Virus record (IMG/VR): IMGVR_UViG_3300027804_000049
Location: 50,611-114,610 of that record
Source of the DNA: a virus
DNA length: 64,000 nucleotides
Strand: one strand, 5' to 3'
This document shows, piece after piece, positions 1 through 50,616 of the stretch (position 1 is its first letter; every line of letters begins with the position of its first letter). The position numbers and the translations under genes are program-made. Below the pieces are notes generated by a model, which worked only from the letters and a program-made list of their open reading frames with translations, was not told where the DNA came from and searched no databases.

Positions 1-890
1 CCATGAAGACGCTTGGACATTGCCTCTGCGACTTCAGACATGTTGTTGATTGTGCTGCCCGCTGTGTATCCAGGAATGTCAGCGCCAGCCGTAATAGCTA
101 CGGTAGCCGCTGAAGTCTGGAGTGATGGGCGGCGATCCGCTGGAGCTTCAATTACTTCAGTAACTGTAGCTTCAGTCTCGTTTGCGGCGGCGGTCACTGG
201 TGCCTCCTGCTCCTTCTGCTCATTTTGAGCAACTTGGGTTGTTTCTGGGGTAGCTGAAACTTCGATTTCAGCTGATGCTGCAACAGGTTCTGTCGCAACT
301 TCTGCAGCTGGTGCCTCTACGTTTTCAGTTGGTTCTGCTGAAAGTTCGGCTTCTGGAGTTACCTCGGCCACTGCTTCCGCAGGAGTTTCTTCTGCAACAG
401 CAGCTTCTGCAGCTGGTGTTACTTCAGTAGCAGCAACTTCTTGAGTTGCTACAGGTGTTTCTGCTGGGGTTGAAAACTCAGATGCCTCTTCCACAGTAGT
501 TGACGCTTCGGCCATTGGCTTATCCTCTTCTTTTTCTTCTTTCATAACTGGAGCAGCAGGAGCCTCTTCAGGCATTTCCTTCTCCTCTTTATTACTGTCA
601 GAATCGGTTTCGCCTTCAGGCATTTCTTCCTTCATTTCGTCACCCTTAACACGCATTGCGGCTTCAGCGGCGCGTGCAGCAAGCTCTTGAGCTTGTGCCT
701 CACGACGAGAAATTTCACCACGTACTGTGTCAAGCATGTCTGCCAATGAGGTCATGGCGTCTACTGTCTGCGGAGATGGATCCTCCTTTTCAACCGTTTC
801 AAATTCGCTGACGATAGCACTCTGTAACTCAACAAGCTTTTCAGCGTCGAGTTCAGAAAGCTGGTCTAGCATTTCTTTTATACGGTCCAC
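1..890 (-). CDS. Major capsid protein with long N-terminal scaffold-like region (5' part only; runs off window)
   Basis: Not in the ORF track because it is truncated. GTG at 890 after AGGAGG. Open frame MDRIKEMLDQLSEL...acidic A/E/P/T region...VAITAGADIPGYTAGSTINNMSEVAEAMSKRLH. Lies directly downstream of the protease gene. Confidence 0.75.
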   Translation of the reverse strand, partial: MDRIKEMLDQLSELDAEKLVELQSAIVSEFETVEKEDPSPQTVDAMTSLADMLDTVRGEISRREAQAQELAARAAEAAMRVKGDEMKEEMPEGETDSDSNKEEKEMPEEAPAAPVMKEEKEEDKPMAEASTTVEEASEFSTPAETPVATQEVAATEVTPAAEAAVAEETPAEAVAEVTPEAELSAEPTENVEAPAAEVATEPVAASAEIEVSATPETTQVAQNEQKEQEAPVTAAANETEATVTEVIEAPADRRPSLQTSAATVAITAGADIPGYTAGSTINNMSEVAEAMSKRLH

Positions 891-1018: not shown

Positions 1019-4000
1019 TTAAGTTAAGAGTCGGAGAAGCTTGCTCAATTCTGAGGAAATCTCAGCTTGAGAGAAATAATCTCCACCTGACATAAACGAC
1101 TTGAGTCCTGTAGTCGCCTCATCAGCCTCGTCCTTTCCTATCTTTTCTTCTACCCTTGGGATCATATCTTCGATAAGACCTTTTAAGGCCGGAGGAAGAT
1201 CGCTGTAGCGGATCTTCTCCGTGTCGCTTCCAAACGGCAATGGGAGATTTGCAATGGTCTCTCCCAAGGCTCTTGCCGAGGTGCGAATATTTTCTATTGA
1301 GTCTGGGTTAAGTGCACGGGTATCAATTCTGTCAACTATGGAGATAACGTCGCCTGCGGCTCTCGCTGCCTCCATGTAGTTTCCAGCGTTGTCAAGGTTT
1401 TCGGCCTTTTCAATTTTGTCGACTACCTTGTCAAGTCCAACGTCGCCAAGGTCCTGCTTTATACGAGCTAGAACTTGACGAAACTTACCTTTTGCATCAC
1501 GCGGCTGAGTCTTGCCAGGCACGTACTTACCTGCCTGAACGTCTGTTACTTCTGCGAACTCAGCCGCTGATGCTTTTCCCAAATCGTTTTGCTCCTCGTT
1601 TGAATAAGCCATTCCAGCGGTCTCAAGAGACGCTATCATTGCGATGCGCTCGCGTAGATAGGCCACCTCTTCACCAAGTTCTTGGCTTGATAACGATTTC
1701 CATTTATCTGGAATTAAGTCTGGACGGTCAAGTTGACGAGCGCGCTTCATGATGTGGCGTCTAACAGCCGCACGCTTGCCTGGCTTTGATCTTCCGTAAG
1801 CTTGAATTGAATCCTTCAAGGAGTCGATGTTTGTAATGGGGTATGAACCGTCTTTAAGAGCGTAACCTTTCTTAGCAAGTTTCTGACGTCTCTCTCGGGA
1901 GATGTAGCCAAACTCGTCATCAAACTTTTGTACTCCAAAAACTCTAGAATACAAGGCATCTGCACGAGCGGAAAGCTCTGCGGCATGTGCCTCCTTAAGA
2001 GCTGTGAAGCGCTCACGAGCAACGTCCGCTTTTGATGAAAGTTCAGCTTGTTCTAACTGCTCCAGTTTTTGTATACGAGAGGTCAAATCTGCGATTGGAT
2101 CTGCCTTCATGCGTGCAAGAACTCCTGCGCCAGCCGCAACAAGTGCCATAACCGCACCTGAGGCAACGCGAGCACGGGCAATAGGGAACCCTGGAACGTT
2201 TACCTGGCAAACCGCTACAAGCTCAAGTTTACCGTTAATTGGACGCCAATCACCAGAAGGTGCAGACGCACGAACTGCGCGAACCTGCTCCGGTGTAGTT
2301 CCTGGACGTAAAGCTCCTGATACCCAGATACCAAAGGCATCTTCTCCAGTATGAACGTCCGCAAAGGCAGACGCGGTGTCATCGTAGTGACGCACCGCCT
2401 CATGAGCGGAAGCCTCAAGTGAGGCATGTCCGCCTGCTAGAGTTAGTTGTCCAACAGGAACGTCTGTTCCGTCGTCTGTGCGAACTACACCTGTATGAAA
2501 ATACGCGTAGTTGCTTCTTGAACGTGGTGGCTTTGTGCCAAATGACATTCCGATATGATCTACATGCCACGCTGCAATATGACCAAATACACGACCTTCG
2601 TCGTCAACGGTCAATGGAGTTGGCTTGTCGAGTTGCGGATTGTCAAACCACGAACGCGGTGGTACGACTGGGATTGATCCTGCCACTAAGCCACAAGCGA
2701 CAAGCGCTGAAGCCTCTACAGGATCCATCTCGTCGACATATACGCCGTCCGGGATCACTGTTTCCTCCTGATTCTCGTCTTCGACGAGGTAGATTTGGCA
2801 CTCTTGGAATGCCGGTTTTGGTACGAGTGTCACTGCCATAACTCGCGCATGCGTAATCACAAGTTTGTCAGCTCCAATCTTACCACTGTCTTTTTCAGCC
2901 AGTTCAGGCACTTCTTGACTTGCCTCGAACTGGTCGAGATCCGCAGAAACTCCACGGATAAAACCATTACTTATTAAACGCTCTGCTTCCTTACCATATT
3001 CTCCAGAGTCAAATACGCCGTGCGCGTTTCCAATTCCACCTTCTACACGTTCCATGTGATCAATACGTCCAATTACAACTGATCCATTGTGTCCTTCGCC
3101 AGTTTCAATTTGCCACATCAATGGCAAAGGTAATTCACGAATTTCTATTGCACCTTTCTTAAAGGTACGTCCATCGCCAGTTTCAATCTCCTCTGGAATT
3201 ACAAGAGGAATCTTAAACTTTGCACCTTCTGCTGTTGTCGTCTCTTCTTCAAGATGCCCTGCTGCAGTAAGAACTCGTCTACGAGCATCTGCCGCTCGAG
3301 CAGAAAGAATAGATGATTGAAGAATCTCATCTACAGAAAGTAGTCCGCGCTTCTTTTTACCAATGTTGTTTTTGCTTCCTGGCCAGGTACCTGTCATCTC
3401 CTTGTGACGAAGAGCGCAGTAGCCTTTCGCGCGAGGACCCATGTACTTCTTAAGGTTGCGATAACAACGCGTCCAATCACCTGGAGTATTCCAACGAATC
3501 TTTATAACTCCGCCTTTACCGATTGTCCAGTAGCGACGTAAGTTTTCTGCATTTCCTCTATTGCGATCTAAGCCACCAGCTGCGGTTAGGAACATTCCAT
3601 TTTTACCATTCCAAAGGACTGTAATAAACTCAAAATCCTTTACAGATGCAGTTACTGGAGCTATTCCATCAACTTGCTCAATGACTGTTTTAAGAGATGC
3701 ACCATCAAGAGGAACTACAGGAGGCGGAGTTGCAGACTTCATATCAGCAAGTATTCGCTCGTCACGCACCCATTTTTTATCCTTGCGAATATAAGTCATC
3801 GCATCAGTTGAGGTAGAGCTAGCTGGGACTAATGACACTAGCTCATAAACAGCGCTAGGGTCCGTATCTGAAACAACTGCAAAAAACACAGGTTGTACGT
3901 CAGATGTTTCAGGTGATATCTCCTTAGACTCACCTGGAGAAACGGCGCTTGTGATGGGTTGATAATACATTTTGTTTGGGTAGTAATATTCGCCGTCTGA

Positions 4001-5644
4001 ACCTTTAACCTTCTTGTTTAAGAAACTTGCAAGAGCTGGGTGTTTATATGGATCAAGCTTAAGCTTAACTCCAGTTAATTTCTCTAGCTCTTTAAGATAA
4101 GGACTCTTTGAAACTTTTTCTATCTGATTTTTTCCAGTAATAACCTTTGGGCCAGATCCGTCCGAGCGAGACTCAAACCCTTCTGTCTTATTTGCATCAA
4201 ATGCGTCACGTTGAGATTTTACCCAGCCTGGCCAATCACCAAGTACTTTTCCCATATCTTCAGAAGTCATTGCTGGAAGAGTTCCAGGAATCTTAGCTCC
4301 GGGACGATCGATAGGAACGCGAGGTTCACCAAGAATACCTGACGTGTTAAGGGGAGTTATATCTACAGGCGCAGTTTTTTGAGCGCTAACTGAAGACTCT
4401 GGTTCTGTTGCAGTCGCAGGAACATCTACTACATCTCCTGAATCAAGTTGTACTCTAACACTTTGCTTTTCAGGATCAATTGCTACTATGTTACCAGATC
4501 CGCGTTCGGCGTCTCCACCAACAACTACACGTGATCCTTGCTTTGAAAATCTTCCGGTTTTATCGCGTACTTGTTTTGCAGCTTTTTCAGACCTTTCCTC
4601 GGGAGTGTAGTCTCCGTCTCCTTCGGTTTCGCCTTCAGCGGCAGCTATAAGCGAGTCAATAAATTCTAAGTCTAACTCGTTAGCTGCAGCTGCAAATAAC
4701 TCGGCTTCCTCTTCATCAATGTCAAAAACTGAAACTGGTCTAAATGGATCTTCTTGGAAGCAGGCGCTTAAAAAGAACGCAGACTCTGCATCAATTTCAA
4801 TGTGAACCTTTTCTACTGAAAGACTCTCTTCGTCGTCTAGCGCCATGTCATAGCTAGCAAGGTCTTGGTTTACATCATCTAATGTGTTCCAAGTTCCTCC
4901 GTCCCAGACTTTAACGTCGTAGTTCTCATCAATCTTGTATAGGCGATCAATTCCAGAGCCGTCCATACGCATACGAGCAATAAACTCAACTGCTTCTAAA
5001 TTATGCTCAAACGCGCCTAAGTCCGTAGGGTATCGGGTGTTAACTGCATAATCAAACTCGTCCTCTTGGTATGAGCTGTCTGCGTATCCATCTGCGCTTA
5101 ATGACTTTTTGTTTTCTCTTTCAACGATGGCACGCGCCCATCTCCACGCGGTGTCGCCACCCCAGAGAGCCCACGCAATACGCCCATTTGACGGAAAACC
5201 GTCTTCTCCTGGCGAGTAACCTTTTGCCTTCTTATCAATCTCATGACGAGGGAAATACTTTGCAATATGACGGACCTTTTCAATTCCAATTTGTCCTCCT
5301 CTTGAAAGAGTGCGGGCTGTGTTAAGACCTACTGGAGTTCCTCCGCGCTTGTGCTCCTTGCGCCACTCAAGAGCTTTATTTGCCTCCTCTTGAGCGCCTT
5401 TAGGAATTGTGTATAAACGACGAGCGCCACCCAATATACTTACGTCTAATGTAGTAAGTGCGGCACTAGCTAATTCAAGTTGGGAGTCAGTAATATCTAG
5501 ATCTTCATCGCTCCATGTAGCAGAGGCAGTTAATGAAGATAAAGCTCCTTGATTAACAACTAAGTTTTCCTCAGAGTTAATCACAACACCTTGGGTGTCG
5601 TTTGAAAAAAGAACAAGAGGTCCGCTTTTTCCTACTACATTCAT
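1019..5644 (-). CDS. Multidomain capsid maturation (prohead) protease fusion, 1541 aa
   Basis: Core ETGDGRTF..LPLPLMWQ..GHNGSVVIGRI..GVSADLD..AVTLVPKPAF followed by the GRVFGHIAAW..SGDWR domain typical of actinophage head proteases. Extra modules GRIAWALWGGD, LRRYW..KIRWNTPGDWTRC and DGSYPI. Position between portal and capsid gene. Confidence 0.8.
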   Translation of the reverse strand: MNVVGKSGPLVLFSNDTQGVVINSEENLVVNQGALSSLTASATWSDEDLDITDSQLELASAALTTLDVSILGGARRLYTIPKGAQEEANKALEWRKEHKRGGTPVGLNTARTLSRGGQIGIEKVRHIAKYFPRHEIDKKAKGYSPGEDGFPSNGRIAWALWGGDTAWRWARAIVERENKKSLSADGYADSSYQEDEFDYAVNTRYPTDLGAFEHNLEAVEFIARMRMDGSGIDRLYKIDENYDVKVWDGGTWNTLDDVNQDLASYDMALDDEESLSVEKVHIEIDAESAFFLSACFQEDPFRPVSVFDIDEEEAELFAAAANELDLEFIDSLIAAAEGETEGDGDYTPEERSEKAAKQVRDKTGRFSKQGSRVVVGGDAERGSGNIVAIDPEKQSVRVQLDSGDVVDVPATATEPESSVSAQKTAPVDITPLNTSGILGEPRVPIDRPGAKIPGTLPAMTSEDMGKVLGDWPGWVKSQRDAFDANKTEGFESRSDGSGPKVITGKNQIEKVSKSPYLKELEKLTGVKLKLDPYKHPALASFLNKKVKGSDGEYYYPNKMYYQPITSAVSPGESKEISPETSDVQPVFFAVVSDTDPSAVYELVSLVPASSTSTDAMTYIRKDKKWVRDERILADMKSATPPPVVPLDGASLKTVIEQVDGIAPVTASVKDFEFITVLWNGKNGMFLTAAGGLDRNRGNAENLRRYWTIGKGGVIKIRWNTPGDWTRCYRNLKKYMGPRAKGYCALRHKEMTGTWPGSKNNIGKKKRGLLSVDEILQSSILSARAADARRRVLTAAGHLEEETTTAEGAKFKIPLVIPEEIETGDGRTFKKGAIEIRELPLPLMWQIETGEGHNGSVVIGRIDHMERVEGGIGNAHGVFDSGEYGKEAERLISNGFIRGVSADLDQFEASQEVPELAEKDSGKIGADKLVITHARVMAVTLVPKPAFQECQIYLVEDENQEETVIPDGVYVDEMDPVEASALVACGLVAGSIPVVPPRSWFDNPQLDKPTPLTVDDEGRVFGHIAAWHVDHIGMSFGTKPPRSRSNYAYFHTGVVRTDDGTDVPVGQLTLAGGHASLEASAHEAVRHYDDTASAFADVHTGEDAFGIWVSGALRPGTTPEQVRAVRASAPSGDWRPINGKLELVAVCQVNVPGFPIARARVASGAVMALVAAGAGVLARMKADPIADLTSRIQKLEQLEQAELSSKADVARERFTALKEAHAAELSARADALYSRVFGVQKFDDEFGYISRERRQKLAKKGYALKDGSYPITNIDSLKDSIQAYGRSKPGKRAAVRRHIMKRARQLDRPDLIPDKWKSLSSQELGEEVAYLRERIAMIASLETAGMAYSNEEQNDLGKASAAEFAEVTDVQAGKYVPGKTQPRDAKGKFRQVLARIKQDLGDVGLDKVVDKIEKAENLDNAGNYMEAARAAGDVISIVDRIDTRALNPDSIENIRTSARALGETIANLPLPFGSDTEKIRYSDLPPALKGLIEDMIPRVEEKIGKDEADEATTGLKSFMSGGDYFSQAEISSELSKLLRLLT

Positions 5645-6602: not shown

Positions 6603-9600
6603 TTAGTCCCAGTACTCTAGATCCATTACGTTTTCAAGTGCCTTGTATTCGTTGGTGCCTTTAGTTGTAAGAGATTTTAAGCGCGCAGTCATAGCGTCCT
6701 TAAAGGCATCATAAGTTCCCCACTTTTCAATGATCTTATCCATTTCAAAACCTTTAGGTTGATATAAGGGGTTATTAAGATTTCTTACAATCTTGTCTGT
6801 TTCATTCTTATAAATCTTTATCATACCTTCTTGCCCAATGCGACGTAGCATCACTGGAATGTGCTCAAGGTACACATCTGCTTCTTGTATTGTTCCACCT
6901 TGGAAATATTCCTCTATAGAAGTAGTGTCTTTCTTAAGCTCACCAACTGTGTTATCAACTGGGAATATGCGAAGCTTATTGGTTACTTGATCAAATGCTA
7001 CCATCCAGTTTCCATCATGTCTATCTTGGTTGTTTCCAAGCATATCAAGTATTGACATTCTAATTAAGTCTTCCGGTGCATCAAGAGAAGTTACAAACGT
7101 AACTGGATTAGAAACGTTTACATCTTCACCTCTTGCGTTTTTTACTCCCTTACGAAACGCTGTTGATGCGTTGACTGCTTCATTTACTAATGGAATCACA
7201 GATCCTGCACGGCTCATCACAACCATGTTGCGGTCATTTCTTCCTACTCGCACATCGTGGATACCTTGCATCCCTGCTGCCTTTAGTAGTATTGATGCCT
7301 CAAGCTCAGTTACTCCTGCATCTGTGTCTGAAAAATTAGAAACAAAGTTATCATTTTTCACGTAAAAGACTTGCCCGCTTGCGATATGTGTTACTTCAAA
7401 TGTAGCATTTACTCCAGACTCGACACCACTGAGCTGGCGAGCGCTAAATCCAGAGTCTTTTAGCTTTGTGCCACTGCCGCCTACGTCATCAAAAAAGTCT
7501 TGTACTCTCAGTTGAGAAAGCACCTCTGCAGAGTTAAACGGATCTGAGTATCCATGGTCAGCTATGTATTCGTTCGTAAGACCTTCACGTAAGCGAAAAA
7601 CATCATCTAATGGCATACTTCTGTCTTTGTCTAAAATCTGTTGACTTATATAGTCATTAAGAGCATTTTTTGCACTTGGAGACAAAGTAGCAAGTGATCT
7701 ATTGTTTCTTATAACGTCGCGTATTTGGCTGTAGTAAGGGGAAACTTGTGGGCTATTTCTAAAGGCGTCTGACTCAATTACAGCAATGCCATCTGAGGAA
7801 ACATTGGGTATGTTTTGCTTAGACTTAACACGTTTTTCAGCATTTCCTATTTGACTATTGTTTGCTGCTTGAACTTGTTCTTTAGCAGTAGGCTCTAGGT
7901 TTTTAGTTCCGTTCCAGCTTTCACTTATCAGTACTCTTTTACCTAGCCAGTCATTAGCGCCTGGACGCCAACCTACGCGTGCAAATTCCATAGGAGTTGG
8001 CACCCTAGACATATCATATTCACCATTTGGCAATTTAGCTGCTTTAAGTTTTTCAACTAAAATTTCAACGTCACTTTCTTCTTCTTTATTTCTTACTTGT
8101 CTTCTAAAGTCTGACATGTTTATAATTTCTGCACTATTTTTCCAGTTAAATCCACTTAGTGCCCAGACAAATCCGCCTTGGTATTCTCTTCCACCTGCAG
8201 CGTAGACTTCTACTTTTTTAATCCCGTTTGCAATGTACCAATTTTCTGTGTAACGATTAAACGCAGTTGCAAATCCTGTCTTTTTACGACCAACTCTGAG
8301 ATACTGATTTTTAGCGTATGAGTCTGCTATTACAACGTTTCCATTTTCATCTACCTTTTTCTTTACTACCAGGTAGCGCTGTATCTCACCTACGGCTGTA
8401 CCAGACACATCTCTTACTACCATACTTGTATTTATTGTGTAATCAAATCTTCCATTTGCTATCTCTTCTTCAGTAGCTCCTGAAAGTGGCGTAACATTAG
8501 TACTTAAATTGTTAATTGATAATGAAAATAATTCTCCGCCAAATGTGACACCTTCGCGAACTCCGTATATGTCGCCAACTATCTCTGTTAGACGATCTTT
8601 TGCCTCACGAGATGCAGCAGCGTCACCTTCATTAAGTATACGTGAAAAAGTGGAGACTTGTTCTTCCAAACTTTTTAGTGATATGCGCTCATTAGCAGCT
8701 TTTGCAATTTCTGCATCCCGTGAGCCCCAGGCTGAAAAATCAGATTGAACTGCATCTTTATTTGTGCGGTCTTTGATGTAGTCAGGAATGGTGCTATCAT
8801 CATTAACTCCAGCAGTCTCGCCTGAGCGAGCTATGCGCGGAGGCGCTGCTACAGGCGCATCAAGGCGTTCTTGAACATCTCTTGCAGACGGCTGTGATTC
8901 TGCTTCTACTACTGTAGGAGCTTTTCCACTTGCATCTGAAATTGCAAGCACCTTTGACGCAGAACGCACCGCGGTGCTTCCATCATCAAATCTAATACGT
9001 AAGTACTCTGGATCGTTTTGTACTGCTACAACAGTTCCAACTTGTCCGTCCTTTAATGCTTTAACGCGCGCGCCTTTACCAACCACAGCACCATCGCGAT
9101 CTCTAGTGGTGTTGTTTGGAGAGTACCCTGGTTCTTTAGGTCCTGGGTACACGTACTGTGGAGCTGCAGGAGCTGCAGGAGCTGCAGGAGCTTCAGGTTC
9201 AGGAGTTGCAGGAGTTTCTTCTTCTTTTTCTTCCGCATCAACGTTTGTTTGATAGATGCTTTCACGCTCTTGAGGAGTAAGATCTCTCCAGCCAGCTTGG
9301 CCAGCTCCTCTTGGATCTGAGAACCAGTCTTGTGAAACTGTAAGCTTTGTAATCGAACCATCGCGTGCAATATAAAGGTCTTCCCATGGATCAACGTATG
9401 CAAGTGATCCGTCAGAAGGTAGATACGAAATTACGTTAATTCCGCTTGGAAATAAGTCGTTTCCAATGTCATAAAAATCTTTTATTGCATCAATGTTATC
9501 ATTAAACATATTTGCTACTTGAGGTGACTCAGGTACTTGAGCTGGCTCGGGTGCTTCTTCAAAGTCATTTGATTCTCTGCTAATTCGCTCTAATACATCA

Positions 9601-11792
9601 TTTGTATTGATGCCTTGTAATTGAAGTGCGTCACGAATTCCTTCGACTGGAACTTCGTATGTTCCTGTGTCGAGATTATCTGGATTATAGATTAAAAATA
9701 CAGATCCTGATCCGTCTGTAATTGCAATCTCAAATTGCTCAAGCAAATCTGCTGTAATAAACTCTCGCGCGATGTACTCTGGATTGTCAGAGTATCCATT
9801 TTCATCCAAGTCCGCAACGCTTGGCTCATACGGATTAGGATCAATAGCATAGTAGTCAGTGTTACCACCAAAATCATTTGGAATATTGTAAATTAACTCA
9901 CCTGGAAGAGGGCTTTGCTCGCCTGCGCTGTCATCTCTCTCTAGAGGGTTTGCTGCCTTTTGCTCTATCTCTTCTGGTGTTGATGATTCCTTAATTTGAG
10001 AGATTTCTTCAAATATGTCATCAATTAACGCTTGTTCATCTGGGTCTGGTTTTCCGCCCGCTGCGTCATGTAACTTGTTTAGGTTGTTGCGATTCCCATT
10101 AACTGCGTCATAAGCATTTGCAATAACGCGATTAGGATCTCCACCTGCTAAAAATATTGCGTTATATAAAGCTTCAGCTGGAACAAATTCGTCACCTTTA
10201 TTAAATTCTAGCTGTCCTGCCCCGCTACCATTTGCGCGTCCTGCAGCAGGGGCAGGAGAGTCGACAACATCATCAACTTCTTCAAGTTCTAGTAACTCAC
10301 CGTCATCGCCAATGCTTGACTCAATAATTTCGTTAAAAATCGCATCGTCTCTGTCGCCAATTAACGCTTGAGTAAGCGCGACACTGAGTTGAGGAAGTGT
10401 GTACTTCACCGCTAGACGGTCTGGGTCGTCTGTAAAGTCTGTTGATTCTTCGTCAACGCGACCATCAGGCTCAAAGTCAACTGTGCGTAATTGAAATGCG
10501 CCGCTAGGAACATCAAACTCATTGAAAAGTGCAGGAGCATTAGGTGCGCTAAGATTTTGTGGAATTACAGCTTTAGGCTCTCCATCTTGAGCTTTAACAC
10601 TTTCCTTAAACTTGTCATAGTCAGGCGAGTCCTTCTCTGCAAGAGATTGTGCCTCTGCCCATGATTCAACATCTCCAACCTTGTCACCAGTATTTCCGTC
10701 CTTATCAAGACGATGAAGTGCAAAGCCAGACTCATTTGGAATTAGCTTATAATCATCATCAGATGTGAAAGACCCATCGTCCTGTTTTGTCCATCCTGTA
10801 GGCGCATCAACCTTTGTCTTAAGTAGGTCGTCAAGAGTTGGAATATCTTTAGAGGAAGCTTCCTTTGCGGTTGGCTTACGGGTTGATGGCTCTCTACTTA
10901 TCTTTTCTCTCTTTAAAGTTTCTTTTGATATACGCGCCTTAACTGGAGTGGCATTAGCGCTTTCAATCGAGTAAATTCCGTCTGGTATCGTGTTATCTCC
11001 ACGAACTTCAATATAACCTGCATTAACTATTTCCTTACCTTCAAATATTGAATATCCACTATTAGCATTTATACCAACAAAATTTCCTGCCGCATTTCCA
11101 ATATCTCCATTAGGAAGTCTAAAGTTAAAGTTAAGTCCTCGACCCATTTCGACCCAACGTCCATAACGGTCACGCCACTGCAATGCAACACGCGCACGAC
11201 GGGCCACACTTGAGTTTCCACTTGAAAAACCAAATGCAGCTACTAAAGTTTTAATTGGACTATCATCAATCTTAAAGAATGAAGAAACCGCTCCTGCCAG
11301 TGTAACGCGTAAGCGAGCAAATGCGTGGCGACGTTGAATTGATCCTGGCTCAAGCGAGTGAGCGGTTGCAATTAAAGGACGAACTGAGTTATCAATAGAC
11401 GGATCTGACGAAAGCCATTGAGCGTATCTTTCTTGAGCAATATCACTTGATGCAGTTACATTTAATAAGGACCTAGGGTGGCCAATTGGTAGTAGGTCAA
11501 TATTAGATGAATACTCGTATGCCTTAAACGTATCTTGATGTGCTGTAATAAACTTTGCAACCTCGCGAAGTACGCCAAGCTCGCGTGACTTATCTGACAA
11601 CGATGAAAGACTGGCATTTGCGCGATTCATAACTGTAAGCGCATTGCGAGGAATAACTCGACGCTCAATTGGAGTGTTCTTATTTGCCTCTGCTACAAGA
11701 GATAAAACCTTTTTACGAAGAGATAAAGGTTTATATCCCTTTGGGTAGATTGCCTTACGATCTACCATCTTACTTATTAACTCTTCGTACAT
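6603..11792 (-). CDS. Large polyvalent virion-associated protein (KOW/SH3-like, GNAT-like, C-terminal HipA/PI3K-like kinase)
   Basis: 1729 aa. Kinase motifs FYVK, NQDRHDGNW, FPVDN. GNAT-like KTGFATAF..GIKKVEVYA..GGFVWALSGF. Duplicated internal domain. Inside the head operon. Confidence 0.65.
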   Translation of the reverse strand: MYEELISKMVDRKAIYPKGYKPLSLRKKVLSLVAEANKNTPIERRVIPRNALTVMNRANASLSSLSDKSRELGVLREVAKFITAHQDTFKAYEYSSNIDLLPIGHPRSLLNVTASSDIAQERYAQWLSSDPSIDNSVRPLIATAHSLEPGSIQRRHAFARLRVTLAGAVSSFFKIDDSPIKTLVAAFGFSSGNSSVARRARVALQWRDRYGRWVEMGRGLNFNFRLPNGDIGNAAGNFVGINANSGYSIFEGKEIVNAGYIEVRGDNTIPDGIYSIESANATPVKARISKETLKREKISREPSTRKPTAKEASSKDIPTLDDLLKTKVDAPTGWTKQDDGSFTSDDDYKLIPNESGFALHRLDKDGNTGDKVGDVESWAEAQSLAEKDSPDYDKFKESVKAQDGEPKAVIPQNLSAPNAPALFNEFDVPSGAFQLRTVDFEPDGRVDEESTDFTDDPDRLAVKYTLPQLSVALTQALIGDRDDAIFNEIIESSIGDDGELLELEEVDDVVDSPAPAAGRANGSGAGQLEFNKGDEFVPAEALYNAIFLAGGDPNRVIANAYDAVNGNRNNLNKLHDAAGGKPDPDEQALIDDIFEEISQIKESSTPEEIEQKAANPLERDDSAGEQSPLPGELIYNIPNDFGGNTDYYAIDPNPYEPSVADLDENGYSDNPEYIAREFITADLLEQFEIAITDGSGSVFLIYNPDNLDTGTYEVPVEGIRDALQLQGINTNDVLERISRESNDFEEAPEPAQVPESPQVANMFNDNIDAIKDFYDIGNDLFPSGINVISYLPSDGSLAYVDPWEDLYIARDGSITKLTVSQDWFSDPRGAGQAGWRDLTPQERESIYQTNVDAEEKEEETPATPEPEAPAAPAAPAAPQYVYPGPKEPGYSPNNTTRDRDGAVVGKGARVKALKDGQVGTVVAVQNDPEYLRIRFDDGSTAVRSASKVLAISDASGKAPTVVEAESQPSARDVQERLDAPVAAPPRIARSGETAGVNDDSTIPDYIKDRTNKDAVQSDFSAWGSRDAEIAKAANERISLKSLEEQVSTFSRILNEGDAAASREAKDRLTEIVGDIYGVREGVTFGGELFSLSINNLSTNVTPLSGATEEEIANGRFDYTINTSMVVRDVSGTAVGEIQRYLVVKKKVDENGNVVIADSYAKNQYLRVGRKKTGFATAFNRYTENWYIANGIKKVEVYAAGGREYQGGFVWALSGFNWKNSAEIINMSDFRRQVRNKEEESDVEILVEKLKAAKLPNGEYDMSRVPTPMEFARVGWRPGANDWLGKRVLISESWNGTKNLEPTAKEQVQAANNSQIGNAEKRVKSKQNIPNVSSDGIAVIESDAFRNSPQVSPYYSQIRDVIRNNRSLATLSPSAKNALNDYISQQILDKDRSMPLDDVFRLREGLTNEYIADHGYSDPFNSAEVLSQLRVQDFFDDVGGSGTKLKDSGFSARQLSGVESGVNATFEVTHIASGQVFYVKNDNFVSNFSDTDAGVTELEASILLKAAGMQGIHDVRVGRNDRNMVVMSRAGSVIPLVNEAVNASTAFRKGVKNARGEDVNVSNPVTFVTSLDAPEDLIRMSILDMLGNNQDRHDGNWMVAFDQVTNKLRIFPVDNTVGELKKDTTSIEEYFQGGTIQEADVYLEHIPVMLRRIGQEGMIKIYKNETDKIVRNLNNPLYQPKGFEMDKIIEKWGTYDAFKDAMTARLKSLTTKGTNEYKALENVMDLEYWD

Positions 11793-13186
11793 TAGCTATA
11801 TTTTTTCTTTGGAAGCAGATCTGCATCTTGCGAGTCATAAAGATCTGTTGCAAGTTCATATGCTCTACTAAATGGAACGTCTCCGTCACGAACACCGCGT
11901 AGCCATGCACCGCGCAACGCAGGAATTATCTCGTAGCCAAGACCGGAGTACTCTGCCATCGAGTAAATTGCATGCTCTGGAGAACCGTATTCATCAAGTG
12001 ACTTTAATGCAACCTGCATAAGCTCATGCTGCATCATTGAAGCCTCTGCCCTTGAGGACTTTGGATGTGCCTTTGGTAAAAGATCATTGTCCTGCTTGTA
12101 ATTTGGATTTGCAGGAGACCCTGAGCGTAAAAGTTTTAGAAACGCGTTAACGCGAGCCATGGCCCAGCCGTCGCGAGTCATGCCTGGTCTATGGCTAGAT
12201 GAAAATGCGCCTGACCCTCTGCGATACACTGCCTTTAACATTGGTAACGTTGCCTTACGTCCTGGCTTTGCGTTCTTGTTGTGCTCTACTATCTTTTTAC
12301 GAAGTGAATTTTCTGTTTTTTGTGAGAATACAATTTTCTTTCCACCTGAGGCTGATCCCTTTGGATTTTTCTTTGATCCGTAGATGCGGTCTTTTTTAGG
12401 AGCGCGGCGCGATGCTGCAAGTGAGCTGTCCGCTGCATCAACAGGAACACAGTTTGGAACCATGTTTCCGTTCTTGCCCTTCTTCATTCCGACTTGCTTG
12501 TATCCGTCCCAACAAGGGCTCTTTCCAGCTGCAATTAAGGCGTTGTACTCTTCGTATGAGCTTAGATCATCAAATGCCTCATTAAAGGCATCAACGCTTG
12601 CCGTATCTTTACTGCCTGCGGTAACAACTCCGTCAGGAATCAACGCGAAGCGGCAGTAGCCTTCTGGCTCAACCTCGGCGGCAATAATCTTACACTCGCT
12701 GCCGCCAACATATAAAATACAGTTGGCGCACTTAACGCCAATCTCCTTGTTTTCATTATTAGCGGCAGATTCATATCCTGCCCAAACACCTGTGTCATCA
12801 GAGTTAAACTTTCCATATTTTTGAGTAATTTCAATAAGCGCGTCGGCAAGATCTTGCTCCTCAGGAACAACAATTCCTGCAGCTAATAAAGCGTCCTCCT
12901 GCTCAATCTTAAATGTTTCATACATCTCGTCGCGAGCGTGATCGTCGTAGTCTTCGCTATACACGTTTATCGACTTCATACGCATTGGACACATACATGT
13001 AATTGGGCAAGGGCATTGACCTGACGGACAATTTTCGCATGAACAGTCGTTTTCATCGCAGTAAAGGCAGTCATCAACAGCTGCCTGTTCGTCCATATCA
13101 GACGAGTCTTCATTTATCTTTGAATAAAGATCTGCCATACGTAGCAAAAGCTCAGCTGCTTCTTGCTTGGTGTTATCGTCATGCAT
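11792..13186 (-). CDS. Multimodular head-associated protein
   Basis: Probable start ATG 13186 after GAGGT (ORF track starts at 13201). Modules: Cys-rich N-term, KCANC..CKII..GYCRF, PCWDGY..VPNCVP, LKAVYRRGSGAF..WAMARVNAFL. Confidence 0.7.
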   Translation of the reverse strand: MHDDNTKQEAAELLLRMADLYSKINEDSSDMDEQAAVDDCLYCDENDCSCENCPSGQCPCPITCMCPMRMKSINVYSEDYDDHARDEMYETFKIEQEDALLAAGIVVPEEQDLADALIEITQKYGKFNSDDTGVWAGYESAANNENKEIGVKCANCILYVGGSECKIIAAEVEPEGYCRFALIPDGVVTAGSKDTASVDAFNEAFDDLSSYEEYNALIAAGKSPCWDGYKQVGMKKGKNGNMVPNCVPVDAADSSLAASRRAPKKDRIYGSKKNPKGSASGGKKIVFSQKTENSLRKKIVEHNKNAKPGRKATLPMLKAVYRRGSGAFSSSHRPGMTRDGWAMARVNAFLKLLRSGSPANPNYKQDNDLLPKAHPKSSRAEASMMQHELMQVALKSLDEYGSPEHAIYSMAEYSGLGYEIIPALRGAWLRGVRDGDVPFSRAYELATDLYDSQDADLLPKKKYS

Positions 13187-14870
13187 TTGGAGGTACCTCA
13201 TTTGGGGGAGTTGCTTGCTCTGGTGTTGCTGGTGTTGCTGGTGTTTGTTGTGCTGCCTGCTCTAAGATTTGTTCAATCTCTGGTGGAACTGGCGCTATGG
13301 ATTGTGCCTGTTGAACTTCGCGAAGCTTATTCATAAGTTCAGGTGATACTGCACTTATCATCTGCTCGGTAAGCTCTGGTGATATTGAACCCTTTTCTAT
13401 CAAAAGACGAAGTGCTAGTTCCTTTGACTCTGGAGCATCAGAGCTTGCAAAACCGTGAGCGCGTCTCCAGGCATCAAATGAAACTGCCATGCGATCAAAC
13501 CCGGAGTCTGCGTCTGCAGCTCTATCATTACGTGTTGCAACTTGAGATGGGTCATACCAGAGACAGACGCGCTTAACGTCTTCCTCTCTAAAACCTGCAG
13601 AGATGAGCGCGGGACGAAGATACATAACTGTCAACGCGTCAACAATGATAAGCATCATTGGCTCAATGTGCGCCTTATATAGTGCCTCATCAATTTGTAA
13701 GGCATTGGAGTATTTAACGTTGGCTAAACCTGTAACAACATCCTTTGGCACGTCTAGACCTTGAAGGATACGCTCTAACACACGGTCAGCGCGTTGCGCA
13801 AGTGATGGGTCAAACGATCTTTCAAACTTAAACTGCTTGATTCTGTCACCAAGCTCTGCAGGACCGCGAATGATAAGAGGAACAACTGCGGATGCAGAAT
13901 CCTCGTCACGAATTGGAGTAGTCATTGCATCAATGAGTTGATCTTCAAACTCGTCAGCTGCCTCCTCGGCAGTCATGCCAGGACTTAACTCGTTCTCATC
14001 ATCATAAGGATAATCTGGGTCTGGACTTGCTGCAACTGAAAGTCCATCTGGCAAATAAAGAGCGCCAGCGTTAAGTCGTGAGCGTGCGGTTGCTCTAAAG
14101 GTACGATTTAGAAGTAGAAGCTCTGCGCAAAGATCGAGTAGACCGCGCATGCTCGAATCTGCTTCCTCGGAGTAACGTGGGTGAGCTCTCCAAATGCGTC
14201 CAACAAAACTTGTATTTGGAAGCTTTAATGCGGCAGCTGCGTTTTTGCCGCCTGATGTAACAACGTCACGACGTGGAATTATTAGATATTGATTACGTGC
14301 ATCAACTTGAAGCTCGTCTGTTGAGCGAATATCCCAGCTTTCAGGAACACCCGTTCCTTTACGTGCAGGGAATTGAACAAGATAGCACTCACCTGAAACC
14401 GATAGGTTTAGGGCTGCATCTCGTAATAGTCCAGCCTGTCCGCCGTATGCAGAGTCTAATCGCGCTAACGCGCGCTCTGCAGCAGCAGCTAATCTCTGAT
14501 CAACAACATCACTGTTGTTTACAGGGACAGGCGACTCCGCGGGATTATCAACCGCGGCTGCATAAAGACGAATACGTGAAACAACTGATGCAACAAGGTT
14601 AAATGCATACTTAACTTCGCCAATGGCGTCATAGTACTCCCAGGCTTCACTCTGCCAATCAGAGGATCCGCCTGTTCTACGTTGCTTAAATCTTTCAACC
14701 TCGCCCTTATCATTTATGGCGATTTGTACTGCCGCTGCAGTTATAGGTCGCGGAGCAGAGTATGGTAATGATTGCGCGTATGACATATCAGAAATGACAA
14801 CGGGAGTTGTTACATTACGTTGTGGTCTTTGATTACGAGGAGGAAATTCCTCGCGACGAAAAATTGCCAC
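13179..14870 (-). CDS. Portal protein
   Basis: 563 aa; WQSEAWEYYDAIGEVKY..SRIRLY, GRIWRAHP, ARSRLNAG as in actinophage portals; between TerL and head genes. Confidence 0.88.
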   Translation of the reverse strand: MAIFRREEFPPRNQRPQRNVTTPVVISDMSYAQSLPYSAPRPITAAAVQIAINDKGEVERFKQRRTGGSSDWQSEAWEYYDAIGEVKYAFNLVASVVSRIRLYAAAVDNPAESPVPVNNSDVVDQRLAAAAERALARLDSAYGGQAGLLRDAALNLSVSGECYLVQFPARKGTGVPESWDIRSTDELQVDARNQYLIIPRRDVVTSGGKNAAAALKLPNTSFVGRIWRAHPRYSEEADSSMRGLLDLCAELLLLNRTFRATARSRLNAGALYLPDGLSVAASPDPDYPYDDENELSPGMTAEEAADEFEDQLIDAMTTPIRDEDSASAVVPLIIRGPAELGDRIKQFKFERSFDPSLAQRADRVLERILQGLDVPKDVVTGLANVKYSNALQIDEALYKAHIEPMMLIIVDALTVMYLRPALISAGFREEDVKRVCLWYDPSQVATRNDRAADADSGFDRMAVSFDAWRRAHGFASSDAPESKELALRLLIEKGSISPELTEQMISAVSPELMNKLREVQQAQSIAPVPPEIEQILEQAAQQTPATPATPEQATPPNEVPPNA

Positions 14871-14911: not shown

Positions 14912-15223
14912 TTACCTGTCAAGTCGTGCGGTTATTAAGCCTGCTAGCGCAGACAGGGCAAATATACACCCTATTAGGAATACCGTACTTGGAAAAAACG
15001 CGTAAAAAACCATAGTTGGAAGTGCGATCCAAAGGGATATACACCACTCACAGGTAAACAGGTATCCGATTGAGCTTGAGTGCGCAGGTTTCTTACTAAA
15101 GACCCAGTCACGCACGGGTTCGAATATTGTGTCAATTATTACCAGGCGCGTTAGGCGATAAACCAAGAGCGCAAGCACGACGAAGTGAAGGGCTGACATA
15201 TTTTCTATTTCATATAGGTTCAT
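14912..15223 (-). CDS. DUF1360-like membrane protein
   Basis: YRLTRLVIIDTIFEPVR..LFTCEWCISLW; hydrophobic; next to portal. Confidence 0.7.
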   Translation of the reverse strand: MNLYEIENMSALHFVVLALLVYRLTRLVIIDTIFEPVRDWVFSKKPAHSSSIGYLFTCEWCISLWIALPTMVFYAFFPSTVFLIGCIFALSALAGLITARLDR

Positions 15224-16146: not shown

Positions 16147-17553
16147 TTATCGTACACGAAACCCACCTTTTCCTCCGCGAAAGGAAGGAAGCTTTCTTGA
16201 GGCAAGAGACTTTGCAGTTATATGTCCGCCAAGGAATCCTGCAGGAGGCTTAATAAGAAGCGCGGTTAATGCGTGAACAAGTGCATCAACTCGATCTGGA
16301 GATCTTGATGTTTCACCAGGGATCCAGGTTGTCATCTGACTCTCAAGCTCTGGAAGATAGTTAATATGGTGAACACGATTTTGCTCGTAGGCAAGAGTCA
16401 CTGGCTCTGCACGTAGTGCCTTGCCATACTTTGAGTGAACCTCTAATACCTTTACGTTTGGGTCAATGGTATTTATTGCATTACGAACTAAGGCGCCACC
16501 TTGATTTACTTCCGCTACAACGGGGCAACCCCACTTGCGTGCCATTTGCACAACCTTGTTTGCCCAAACATCAGGAGATCCGTGAACTGTTGCGTCCTCA
16601 AGGATCCAGGAGTTACGCTTGTATAAATCGCGCTCGCCTGTTGATGCGCAAACAACAATTCCGCACTCATCGCGCGGATTCTCTGCAACCGATGGGTCAA
16701 CGCCAATTACGCGTAGTGGAGCTCCAATTGGAAGTTGCGTCTCACGACCGCGATCTATAAGTTCAATTGTCCAAAGAGCTCCTTCAATATCTGAAAGCAT
16801 CTCTCCGTAGAGTTCCTGTTGCGCAAGACGTGTTCCTTCATATACACCCATAATTGCACTTATATATGACTCAGATAGGTTTCCACGGTTATCCATGGTT
16901 GAGCCTTTGGTAACGATTACCTTGTCTGGCTGCTTCTTACTTTCATTTATAAGTTGATATAGAAGTGGAACGCGCTTAGGTGTCGTCGTGATTAAGATCT
17001 TTGGCTTTAACCCAAGACGTGTACCAACGCGTAAGTTATCAAACGCAGTCATACCTGCCGCGTCGGGAGTTTGACGCCAGGCGGCAACCTCATCACCCCA
17101 GGCATGCGTGAATTGAGGACCGCGAAGCGAGTCAGGCTCGTCTGCTGTGAAGAGCGTTGCGGTGTTTCCATTAGGCCAAGTAAGACGACGCTTTGAAGGT
17201 TCGTAGTGCGGGCGCTCGCTTGGTGGCGTGATATTTATGATTCCTGATTCGCCTTCTACGATAACGTCACGAACGTCTGCGGCGGTACGCGCAACGAGCG
17301 CGAAGCGAAGTTGTCCTTTATTCGTATACCTTGCCTGCTCTCTTACCCACTCTGCTGCAAGGCGCGTCTTACCAAAACCGCGACCTGCAAGTACAAGCCA
17401 GATGTTCCAGTCATCACCTACGGGAGACTGCTGCTCAGGACGACCCCAAAACGACCAGTCCCAAGGAAGGGTCTCTTGATCAAGTCCACTTAATATCGCA
17501 TCACGTTCCTCCTCGGAAAGTATTGCGATCTGCTCGGCTATGCTTTTGCCCAT
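16147..17553 (-). CDS. terL: Terminase large subunit
   Basis: Walker A AGRGFGKT, LRGPQF..WGDE Walker B, TTTP, nuclease VIGVDP and SPDRVDA. Start probably ATG 17553 (TACTAT-N6-ATG). Confidence 0.95.
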   Translation of the reverse strand: MGKSIAEQIAILSEEERDAILSGLDQETLPWDWSFWGRPEQQSPVGDDWNIWLVLAGRGFGKTRLAAEWVREQARYTNKGQLRFALVARTAADVRDVIVEGESGIINITPPSERPHYEPSKRRLTWPNGNTATLFTADEPDSLRGPQFTHAWGDEVAAWRQTPDAAGMTAFDNLRVGTRLGLKPKILITTTPKRVPLLYQLINESKKQPDKVIVTKGSTMDNRGNLSESYISAIMGVYEGTRLAQQELYGEMLSDIEGALWTIELIDRGRETQLPIGAPLRVIGVDPSVAENPRDECGIVVCASTGERDLYKRNSWILEDATVHGSPDVWANKVVQMARKWGCPVVAEVNQGGALVRNAINTIDPNVKVLEVHSKYGKALRAEPVTLAYEQNRVHHINYLPELESQMTTWIPGETSRSPDRVDALVHALTALLIKPPAGFLGGHITAKSLASRKLPSFRGGKGGFRVR

Positions 17554-17818
17554 GTACAAATAGTACAATAAGATGCGCTTATTGATTTGTGTACAAAAAC
17601 GCAGATTCAGTACCTTAAGGTTAAGTGCCTTGGACGTGAGAAAGCGCCCTGCATTACGGGAGCGCTTTGCGAAAACGTCTCCAACATTTTTTACAATTTT
17701 TCATATTTTTCTGTTTTCTGTCAAGAGCATAAGGCATTGCCTCTACAAAAAATTGTTTTGTAGATTGTTCCAAAGGTATAGTTGCTTGCTTATTAGTTGC
17801 TTTGTCTTAGAAATACTT

Positions 17819-21255: not shown

Positions 21256-22188
21256 TCATACCCACGAGAATAAACGAACCTCTTCATAGACCGTACCTAC
21301 AACCTCGCTCCAAATTTGCGGTGTGTGGTCAAAAGGTTGATACCCACCAGCTCCTCCGATGAGGACTCGGCCTTGAGCATATGTGTTGGCAATTTGACCT
21401 ACGACCTTAGCCGCATACTTGTATCCAGGGTAATCGAAGTTAAGGGTTGACAACGGATCTGAAATGTGAGCATCAGCTCCAGTAGCCAACAACACAACAT
21501 CTGGTTGGATCTTGTGTGATAGCTCAGCAACTTGATCTACCGCATCGCGAAATGCATCATCACCGGAGCCTGGATCTAACGCCCAGTTATAAATACCGAA
21601 CGAAGGCTTATGTCCATCAAGACCTGTACCTGGAAAAATCACAGAGTCGTGAATCGAGCATGTAACAATATCTCTTGAGCTGGCAAGTAGATTCTCAACG
21701 CCATCACCATGATGCGCATCCCAGTCGATATACATAACCTTCATGCCATTACGATGAAATTCCTTTGCAGCCCAAGCCATGTCGTTAAACACGCAAAATC
21801 CTGAGCTGTGATTACGTTGAGCATGGTGCTTAGCTCCCTGAGGATTAAAGCCAACCTTTAAGTCACCCGCAAGCATTTTTTCTGTAAGACGAACTGTTCC
21901 GGCAAACATGTGTAATGCGACCTTACCCTTGTGGGTATCGTCTGGTCTCCATTCACCGCAATGCCCAAGGTCAAGAACCTTTGAAACATATTCCTTATCG
22001 TGAATGGACTCTACGTGAGCTCTATCCGTATCAAGGATGTCTGGTTTTATAATGACGACGTCGTGGTTTTCCTGCAACATCTGTGTTGCATACTTTGCAC
22101 GAACCGGATTTGTTGGATGCTCGAAATCTGAGCTACCAAGTTTCCAATCAAGATACACATCGTCGTATGAGATATGTAGCTTAGTCAT
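21256..22188 (-). CDS. Zn-dependent histone deacetylase family (AcuC-like) deacetylase
   Basis: GAKHHA..SGFCVFND, IDWDAHHGDG, SIH..FPGTG, GADAH..DPL, GGY. Confidence 0.92.
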   Translation of the reverse strand: MTKLHISYDDVYLDWKLGSSDFEHPTNPVRAKYATQMLQENHDVVIIKPDILDTDRAHVESIHDKEYVSKVLDLGHCGEWRPDDTHKGKVALHMFAGTVRLTEKMLAGDLKVGFNPQGAKHHAQRNHSSGFCVFNDMAWAAKEFHRNGMKVMYIDWDAHHGDGVENLLASSRDIVTCSIHDSVIFPGTGLDGHKPSFGIYNWALDPGSGDDAFRDAVDQVAELSHKIQPDVVLLATGADAHISDPLSTLNFDYPGYKYAAKVVGQIANTYAQGRVLIGGAGGYQPFDHTPQIWSEVVGTVYEEVRLFSWV

Positions 22189-22693
22189 TTAACTTCAACT
22201 CCCTTAGATATTTCTCAAAGCTTTGATTTATCAAGACAGCGCTTGAACGCTTTGTCCGCATTAGCTCAATAGCTTGCTCAGCTGTATAGCCTTCAAGCAT
22301 GAGAACAATTCCCATAGTTAAGCCAGATCTATTGATTCCAGCTTGACATCTAACAAGAACATTCTTGCCAGACTTCCACTGTTCGTGTGCATATTTAGCC
22401 GCACGCATTAGTGTAGCCTCATCAAAGCTGGAGTTGTCATCGTAAAATCCGTAACGAACTTCCTCGACAAACCAGTCAACTGGTCGTGCCCATGCATAGA
22501 GCGTGACGACTACCTCGAAATCGTTTTTTGTTATTGCACGAGGACCTAATGTGTTGGCCTCGTAATCAATCGTGTCAAAATCATCTGTTCCACCAAGCCA
22601 AAGCCCTGAAAGGATCTCGCTCCATAGAGGAAAGTTCCAGTCAATTTCGTGCTGCGGTGCAGCACCAAGTTCCTCTGTACTGTAAGTTGCCAT
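22181..22693 (-). CDS. Dual-specificity protein phosphatase
   Basis: P-loop VRCQAGINRSG; GLWLG. True start near 22693/22699 after GAAAGGA; the ORF-track extension runs through the tRNA. Confidence 0.88.
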   Translation of the reverse strand: MATYSTEELGAAPQHEIDWNFPLWSEILSGLWLGGTDDFDTIDYEANTLGPRAITKNDFEVVVTLYAWARPVDWFVEEVRYGFYDDNSSFDEATLMRAAKYAHEQWKSGKNVLVRCQAGINRSGLTMGIVLMLEGYTAEQAIELMRTKRSSAVLINQSFEKYLRELKLND

Positions 22694-22771
22694 TGTCATG
22701 CGTCCTTTCGAATCGGTGGGACAGGGTCCCCATAGGTCTATTATATCAGGTTTGTAAACAACTCTAAAACA

Positions 22772-22847
22772 TGGAGCGGACGACGGGGGTCGAACCCGCG
22801 ACCTGAACCTTGGCAAGGTTCCGCGCTACCAACTGCGCTACGTCCGC
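22772..22847 (-). tRNA. tRNA-Gly(GCC)
   Basis: GCGGACGTAGCGCAGTTGGTAGCGCGGAACCTTGCCAAGGTTCAGGTCGCGGGTTCGACCCCCGTCGTCCGCTCCA; full cloverleaf, encoded CCA. Confidence 0.97.
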
Positions 22848-23410
22848 TAGAACTTCTGGGACTTTATAACGATAGGTTCAGCTGAGTAAATATCCCACTT
22901 GATTGCAGCAGCTATCGCTTTTTTAATATTCTCTTCTGCTTGTTTCAGTGTCTTTGCTGGACCTAGAATCTCTAGAGCTCCAAGCACAACGTCTCCTCCT
23001 GAACCACCGTAATAAACATTACGAACATCTCTGTCCCAAGAGTAGTCTTCGAAAATCGGATATATGACACCACGCACTGCAACTAAAAACATTGAGTCAT
23101 GAGCTGCCGCATCTCCGTCCTCCTTCATGTCATAACCAGCTTCAATAAAAGCTCGCCGCATCTCTGGAACAAACTTTTTAGTCATAAAGGAATCTAAGTT
23201 TTCTGCGCTGTTCGGTGGTTTTGGTGGAGTCCAGCCAAACTGAAGAATGTTAGATCCACGACTTGCACCAGCTCCAGCAATTAGGTATGGTCCGTTTTCG
23301 ATGACCTTATGAGTTGCCATAGTTGTGTATCGACCTGACTCTTCAGAAGCTCTAGAGTCGCATCCAATAACACACCAACCATTGCCTTGAATCGCGGCAA
23401 GCGTAGTCAT
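22847..23410 (-). CDS. Ntn-hydrolase, proteasome beta/HslV-like peptidase
   Basis: N-terminal MTTL nucleophile Thr, DSRAS, conserved K, GSGG, DIYS. Confidence 0.8.
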   Translation of the reverse strand: MTTLAAIQGNGWCVIGCDSRASEESGRYTTMATHKVIENGPYLIAGAGASRGSNILQFGWTPPKPPNSAENLDSFMTKKFVPEMRRAFIEAGYDMKEDGDAAAHDSMFLVAVRGVIYPIFEDYSWDRDVRNVYYGGSGGDVVLGALEILGPAKTLKQAEENIKKAIAAAIKWDIYSAEPIVIKSQKF

Positions 23411-50409: not shown

Positions 50410-50616
50410 GTGCCCTTAGTCTACGGTCCTGTATCTCCAATAGAGTCAGACCGTATCTGTGATCTTTGTCCTTACCTCGCGCGCGTTAAAGTTGAGTTAG
50501 CAGATAAGACAGTTTATTTTTGTGACATACACGCGTTTGTTCATTCAGATCTAATTTGGGAAAACGCGCTCGCGATCTATGACGCCGCGGATATTCTTCC
50601 ACCTAAGCCAGAGTAA
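50410..50616 (+). CDS. Small zinc-binding protein
   Basis: DRICDLC..FCDIH. Confidence 0.6.
   Translation: MPLVYGPVSPIESDRICDLCPYLARVKVELADKTVYFCDIHAFVHSDLIWENALAIYDAADILPPKPE

Follow-up and report, generated by a model that had tools for sequence, protein, structure and literature searches.

We analysed a stretch of viral DNA of 64,000 nucleotides (the window), which spans positions 50,611 to 114,610 of IMG/VR virus record IMGVR_UViG_3300027804_000049, a record of 114.6 kb with an estimated completeness of 89 per cent. The subject here is a gene on the minus strand (6603..11792), open for 1729 codons from its ATG, and its 1729-amino-acid (aa) product, P0001. The C-terminal half of P0001 very probably holds an active phosphotransferase of an atypical kinase group, joined to what is likely a GNAT-type acyltransferase, and the gene lies among those for the phage head. 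A sequence-only reading of this DNA had placed it in a head operon, and the gene order agrees, running from the portal side to the major capsid side. On the minus strand, the large terminase is followed by three small open reading frames (ORFs), the portal, a 469-aa ORF, P0001, a 316-aa ORF, a 1541-aa ORF, and the major head protein:

16147-17568, minus strand: large terminase
13179..14870, minus strand: portal protein (phrog_776, E 2.3e-107)
11792..13201, minus strand: 469-aa ORF matching DUF5824, located between the genes for the portal and P0001
1019..5644, minus strand: 1541-aa head protein (PHROG labels: head maturation protease, virion structural protein, or portal)
3..890, minus strand: beginning of the gene for the major head protein, which continues beyond the window (phrog_777, E 8.2e-10)

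The ATG of P0001 overlaps the stop codon of the upstream ORF by one base (TAATG), which fits co-translation within the head operon. The place of the gene just downstream of the portal is kept in five related virus records.

The C-terminal half (residues 860-1729) was modelled with AlphaFold2 from an alignment of seventy-seven sequences. The mean predicted local distance difference test score (pLDDT) was 91.3 and the predicted template modelling score (pTM) 0.85, so that confidence in the predicted domains is high. From residue 891 to residue 1729 the model shows a barrel, helices, a GNAT-like domain, a helical linker, and an atypical kinase, in that order:

8940..9122, minus strand: KOW-like five-stranded barrel in the predicted structure (residues 891-951)
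8568..8747, minus strand: three long helices in the model, before the GNAT-like domain (residues 1016-1075)
7893..8549, minus strand: GNAT-like domain (residues 1082-1300)
7551..7892, minus strand: helical domain in the model, joining the GNAT-like domain to the kinase (residues 1301-1414)
6606..7550, minus strand: atypical protein-kinase-like domain of the PI3/4K, HipA/CtkA, CotH, and Fam20 group (residues 1415-1729)

The kinase (residues 556-870 of the model) has a bilobal kinase fold. A structural search with the kinase-bearing model against 48,161 representative solved chains gave the following matches, each with its two match values:

CotH (5jda): 12.8, 258
PI4KII alpha (4pla): 12.3, 245
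MavQ: 11.0, 238
Fam20: 11.0, 243
ATM: 10.9, 251
CtkA: 10.8, 221
HipA: 10.8, 233

The values from CotH to HipA are too close to pick one family. Foldseek independently returned PI3K and PI4K structures at E values from 7e-6 to 1e-4. At the sequence level, a family profile matches CtkA (E 1.3e-3), with N.DRH.GNW aligned to NFDRHNGNW. The Pfam model PI3_PI4_kinase (PF00454) scores 15.9 bits on P0001, over the catalytic loop only (residues 1578-1614) and below the gathering cut-off of 27.1; relatives score 16.8-24.0 bits, and two of them carry a precomputed PF00454 label. HipA_C was not matched in the Pfam scan of P0001. Domains of the PI3K/PI4K type have already been annotated automatically in some tailed viruses.

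The active site is complete, with the ATP-binding Lys, the helix-C Glu, the catalytic Asp/Asn loop (D1590-R-H-x-G-N1595), and the metal-binding Asp. Seven residues (K1479, E1496, D1583, D1590, R1591, N1595, and D1613) are invariant in all 102 aligned sequences, within which identity to P0001 drops to 25-33 per cent; one relative at only 26 per cent identity retains the kinase Lys, Glu, Asp, Asn, and Asp. Because all the residues for ATP binding and phosphotransfer are present and invariant across the 102 relatives, we consider the kinase domain real and catalytically competent, and very probably an active phosphotransferase. The kinase that the sequence-only reading had seen at about 6650-7420 is thus supported by structure prediction, profile searches, and an invariant active site.

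The closest known proteins differ from P0001 in setting. The toxins CtkA (Helicobacter pylori, 3akj) and HipA are unlike P0001, which lacks a Pfam HipA_C match, the N-terminal domain of HipA, and a HipB-type antitoxin context, and whose kinase forms the C-terminal end of a head-module protein of 1729 aa. CotH (5jda), the type II PI4-kinases (4pla, 4hnd), the Fam20 kinases, and MavQ share 7-14 per cent sequence identity with the P0001 kinase and have unrelated biology. Since their substrates differ from one another, they predict no substrate for P0001. A lipid or small-molecule substrate in place of a protein, such as phosphatidylinositol or an anti-phage metabolite, is one option, and phosphatidylinositol is a membrane lipid of Actinomycetota. 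We find such a substrate doubtful: every PF00454 score falls short of its cut-off (15.9 to 24.0 against 27.1 bits), among sequence-profile matches the best is to a protein kinase, CtkA, and the protein kinases CotH, Fam20C, and HipA score level with the lipid kinases. The DRHxGN catalytic loop is also unlike the aminoglycoside-phosphotransferase (APH) type.

For the domain at residues 1082-1300, a GNAT fold is likely. In the model, strands and helices follow one another in a way that fits a GNAT core. The loop between strand beta4 and helix alpha3 reads K1170-K-T-G1173-F-A1175, lies between a predicted strand and helix, and fits the pattern Q/R-x-x-G-x-G/A; G1173 is kept in 100 of 100 relatives and A1175 in eighty-five of them. 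Distant homologues have the classical Q-G-x-G-F-A in this loop. Among thirty-nine homologues of the domain, eight match Pfam Acetyltransf_1 (best E 6.7e-6), and the stand-alone homologue P0220 reaches 21.0 bits with a Pfam GNAT model, just over the curated cut-off of 20.7. Seventeen of the twenty-four matches of the domain profile to the Protein Data Bank (PDB) are GNATs, with weak E values (0.026-3) and alignments that fall on strand 4, helix 3, and strand 5. A weak lead towards GNATs also came from an embedding search. The structural neighbours in BFVD include a Streptomyces phage 'acetyltransferase' (E 4.8e-3), MuF ('head morphogenesis') proteins, and a mycobacteriophage ADP-ribosyltransferase (ART) protein. 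The domain ends in a conserved C-terminal extension, PTP.E.A..GW.PGA..W.GK...W.G.K.L, in which W1282, G1284, W1293, G1295, K1297, and L1299 are invariant and which is absent from textbook GNATs. The GNAT-like segment proposed earlier at about 8140-8320 holds up, with indirect support from the Pfam matches of homologues and the weak domain-profile matches, and it retains the coenzyme A (CoA) loop motif. The domain probably binds acyl-CoA and transfers an acyl group.

It could be argued that both enzyme-like domains are pseudo-enzymes, structural remnants within a large protein of the head interior or scaffold. In line with such a history, the GNAT-like domain is divergent, with no Pfam match in P0001. 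The kinase keeps its Lys, Glu, Asp, Asn, and Asp without exception across 102 sequences despite the low identities given above, and the Gly of the CoA loop is kept in every relative, which makes decay of this kind very improbable.

In a full HMMER search with residues 1101-1729, the GNAT-like segment had much the widest distribution: it occurs by itself, as the C-terminal end of proteins 170-900 aa in length, and within giants as long as 7601 aa. Its fusion partners elsewhere are ADP-ribosyltransferase toxin domains, VG15 proteins, and MuF-like 'head maturation protease' proteins, and a pattern of such fusions has been described for head-protein cargo and polyvalent proteins (PMC5512222). About two dozen other proteins (600-3600 aa) match across both the GNAT-like domain and the kinase in a single stretch, and the pair therefore behaves as one unit. 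Two of these, the distant metagenomic giants P0126 (2663 aa) and P0127 (3267 aa), carry this unit plus a 2H phosphoesterase domain of the 2'-5' RNA ligase superfamily.

A GNAT acetyltransferase is also fused to a kinase-fold phosphotransferase in one polypeptide in AAC(6')-APH(2''). We set this analogy aside. The P0001 loop is DRHxxN, as in the PI3/4K-HipA group, and not the APH motif, and there is no sequence or profile link between the two proteins; the likeness is one of architecture only.

The N-terminal half (residues 1-860) was modelled less well, with a pLDDT of 75 and a pTM of 0.31. It had no informative fold match, with nothing credible in BFVD and no usable match in the ESM Atlas, and a search of its profile against the PDB added nothing. 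The features of this half, and of the linker region that follows it, are:

10923..11261, minus strand: Arg-rich motif and SH3/Tudor/KOW-like beta-barrel (residues 178-290, the barrel at 205-290)
10587..10805, minus strand: small beta-sheet and long helix, closing the first conserved block (residues 330-402)
10548..10586, minus strand: cassette insertion site, from BLAST against relatives (residues 403-415)
10095..10436, minus strand: duplicated alpha/beta domain, copy 1, with an insertion of ~39 aa (residues 453-566)
9564..9794, minus strand: duplicated domain, copy 2 (residues 667-743)
9153..9545, minus strand: poorly conserved region with a Pro/Ala-rich linker at its end (residues 750-880)

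The best-conserved stretch of this half is Arg-rich (residues 178-222, 11127-11261) and reads GNSS.ARRARVALQWRDR.GRW.EMGRG; it may be a binding peptide or a processing site. Its residues 178-204 have a pLDDT below 50. The Arg-rich motif and barrel also open gp70 of Microbacterium phage Zooman (36 per cent identity, E 1e-21). Zooman gp70 is 1764 aa long and likewise follows the portal, and its C-terminal part is unrelated to that of P0001. Because P0001 and Zooman gp70 share a front and carry different cargo behind it, this module (residues 178-290) suggests itself as a candidate for head incorporation.

Two further claims of the earlier reading concerned repeated and barrel folds. The duplicated domain is invisible to self-BLAST, and profile-profile comparison with hhalign recovers it between residues 453-566 and 667-743 at a probability of 95.5 per cent (E 1.6e-8). 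The second barrel, placed at 8940-9090, appears in the C-terminal model as a KOW-like fold of five strands.

Megablast showed no cultured phage to be similar at the DNA level, and phmmer found no PDB match to the whole of P0001. With the whole protein as a tblastn query, matches in cultured phages are confined to the N-terminal block and come from a lake phage, Actinomycetia phage DSL-LC01, and from several Microbacterium phages about 190 kb in size. The GNAT-kinase unit was found in no cultured phage by tblastn with the C-terminal 629 aa; the sole match was of forty-five residues in gp5 of Microbacterium phage Jera. Full-length relatives in metagenomes number more than 115, are 1700-2700 aa long, and lie on contigs of up to 146 kb, one of them in a bin named Micrococcales. 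The source of the window is probably an uncultured phage of about 115-135 kb with a freshwater Actinomycetota host. In phage DSL-LC01 (L002 7944-10572), a separate 347-aa DUF5824 protein lies at the corresponding place, followed by a giant protein of 3289 aa.

By BLAST, the relatives have three blocks in common with P0001 (residues 1-403, 415-750, and 860-1729), and residues 750-860 are weakly conserved. At residues 403-415, ninety-five relatives have 133-1234 extra residues. The insert is absent from P0001 and from P0003 and P0004, which are 81-83 per cent identical to it; P0002, 97-99 per cent identical on both flanks, has about 136-150 extra residues there. In three of the four relatives scanned, the insert opens with a Sigma70_r4-type helix-turn-helix. 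The site is thus an insertion/deletion hot spot.

Among known systems, P0001 resembles the polyvalent proteins found in phages and conjugative elements (Iyer, Burroughs, Anand, de Souza, and Aravind 2017; PMC5512222) and MuF-cargo proteins. Like them, it is very large and multidomain, is encoded in a virion module beside the portal, carries several effector-type enzymatic domains on one polypeptide, and gains domains at a variable site. Its type of GNAT-like domain also adjoins ART domains elsewhere. Both GNAT and kinase domains are listed as recurrent cargo of polyvalent proteins; the kinases described there are truncated Ser/Thr/Tyr-type and zeta-toxin kinases, and HipA and PI3K are not mentioned (PMC5512222). 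Unlike in the polyvalent proteins, the GNAT-like domain and kinase form one conserved unit in the P0001 family.

We favour, as an evenly balanced judgement, a reading of P0001 as a polyvalent head-module protein that is packed in the head, delivered with the DNA, and modifies molecules of the host. The N-terminal block would bring P0001 into the procapsid, and the protein would be packed with the DNA and enter the cell at infection. Once inside, the kinase and acyltransferase would act on molecules of the host, most probably on proteins, in the service of takeover or counter-defence. We propose action on host targets because the gene lies between the portal and capsid genes, the GNAT-like domain recurs on MuF-like and ART head proteins, and the kinase site is intact.

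Several points weigh against this. Packaging and ejection are proposed from a single line of evidence, the position of the gene. Unlike MuF-fused toxin cargo, P0001 showed no MuF (Phage_Mu_F) or other known head-targeting domain in Pfam and PHROGs scans. The relatives of the kinase fold span protein, lipid, and glycan kinases, which leaves several classes of substrate possible. As for the acyltransferase, Pfam GNAT models find no match in P0001 itself, and solved GNATs are missing from the top fifty rows of the structural search, which the kinase fills. Finally, a HipA-like kinase in the same genomic position has been taken for a late gene product that is not injected (Benler et al. 2021; PMC8008677).

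That kinase, from the 'Gratiaviridae' phages of the gut, is, like the one in P0001, an atypical kinase of a tailed phage whose gene lies between those for the portal and the major capsid protein. It differs in belonging to another phage lineage with hosts in another phylum, the Bacteroidetes; the neighbouring genes encode an AAA ATPase and a glycosyltransferase, and a GNAT fusion is not reported (PMC8008677). We compared the two by description only. The late-gene reading that Benler et al. preferred for it gives the main rival for P0001, a late assembly enzyme made with the head proteins, which during morphogenesis would phosphorylate or acylate head proteins of the phage or the envelope of the host, and would not have to be ejected. 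CotH, the top structural match, acts on spore-coat proteins in such a way, and action late in infection or in head assembly fits the same data. We consider this role possible but on the unlikely side.

Should P0001 be packed and ejected as we propose, the enzymes that phages deliver with their DNA would gain an atypical kinase (HipA/PI3-4K/CotH type) with an acyltransferase joined to it. The analysis also defines a large unannotated family, its full-length relatives being without a Pfam or PHROG function, and its layout of carrier, cassette, and effector could be mined for takeover and counter-defence activities. What is new is the family and the pairing of a GNAT-like domain with an atypical kinase, and not the principle; both the polyvalent/cargo concept and a HipA-like kinase in the head module have already been published.

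Elsewhere in the window, at 21256-22816 on the minus strand, one gene encodes a deacetylase of the HDAC family (310 aa; E 3.4e-54 for Pfam Hist_deacetyl) and another a dual-specificity phosphatase (211 aa; E 4.5e-10 for DSPc). The two genes overlap by 8 nucleotides and lie 9.5 kb from that of P0001. One could imagine that the GNAT-kinase unit is a capsid-delivered pair of 'writers' whose marks are later erased by the phage deacetylase and phosphatase, giving timed control of host proteins. The genes for the deacetylase and phosphatase lie side by side in five of five related virus records examined, and the kinase is also retained in all five, the most distant included. There is thus no independent contrast, and the co-occurrence shows a shared core genome and carries no information on functional coupling; we regard the writing and erasing of marks as improbable. 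An HslV/proteasome-like peptidase (22847-23410, minus strand; phrog_1040, E 5.8e-20) adjoins the deacetylase-phosphatase pair, with its Pfam Proteasome match just below the cut-off.

Two other genes deserve mention. The 1541-aa protein (1019-5644), whose gene lies immediately upstream of the one for the major head protein, has strong PHROG matches and zero Pfam matches; probably it is a large fusion of protease or scaffold type. A small DUF1360 protein (14912-15223, minus strand; Pfam E 2.5e-13, phrog_781) is encoded between the terminase and the portal.
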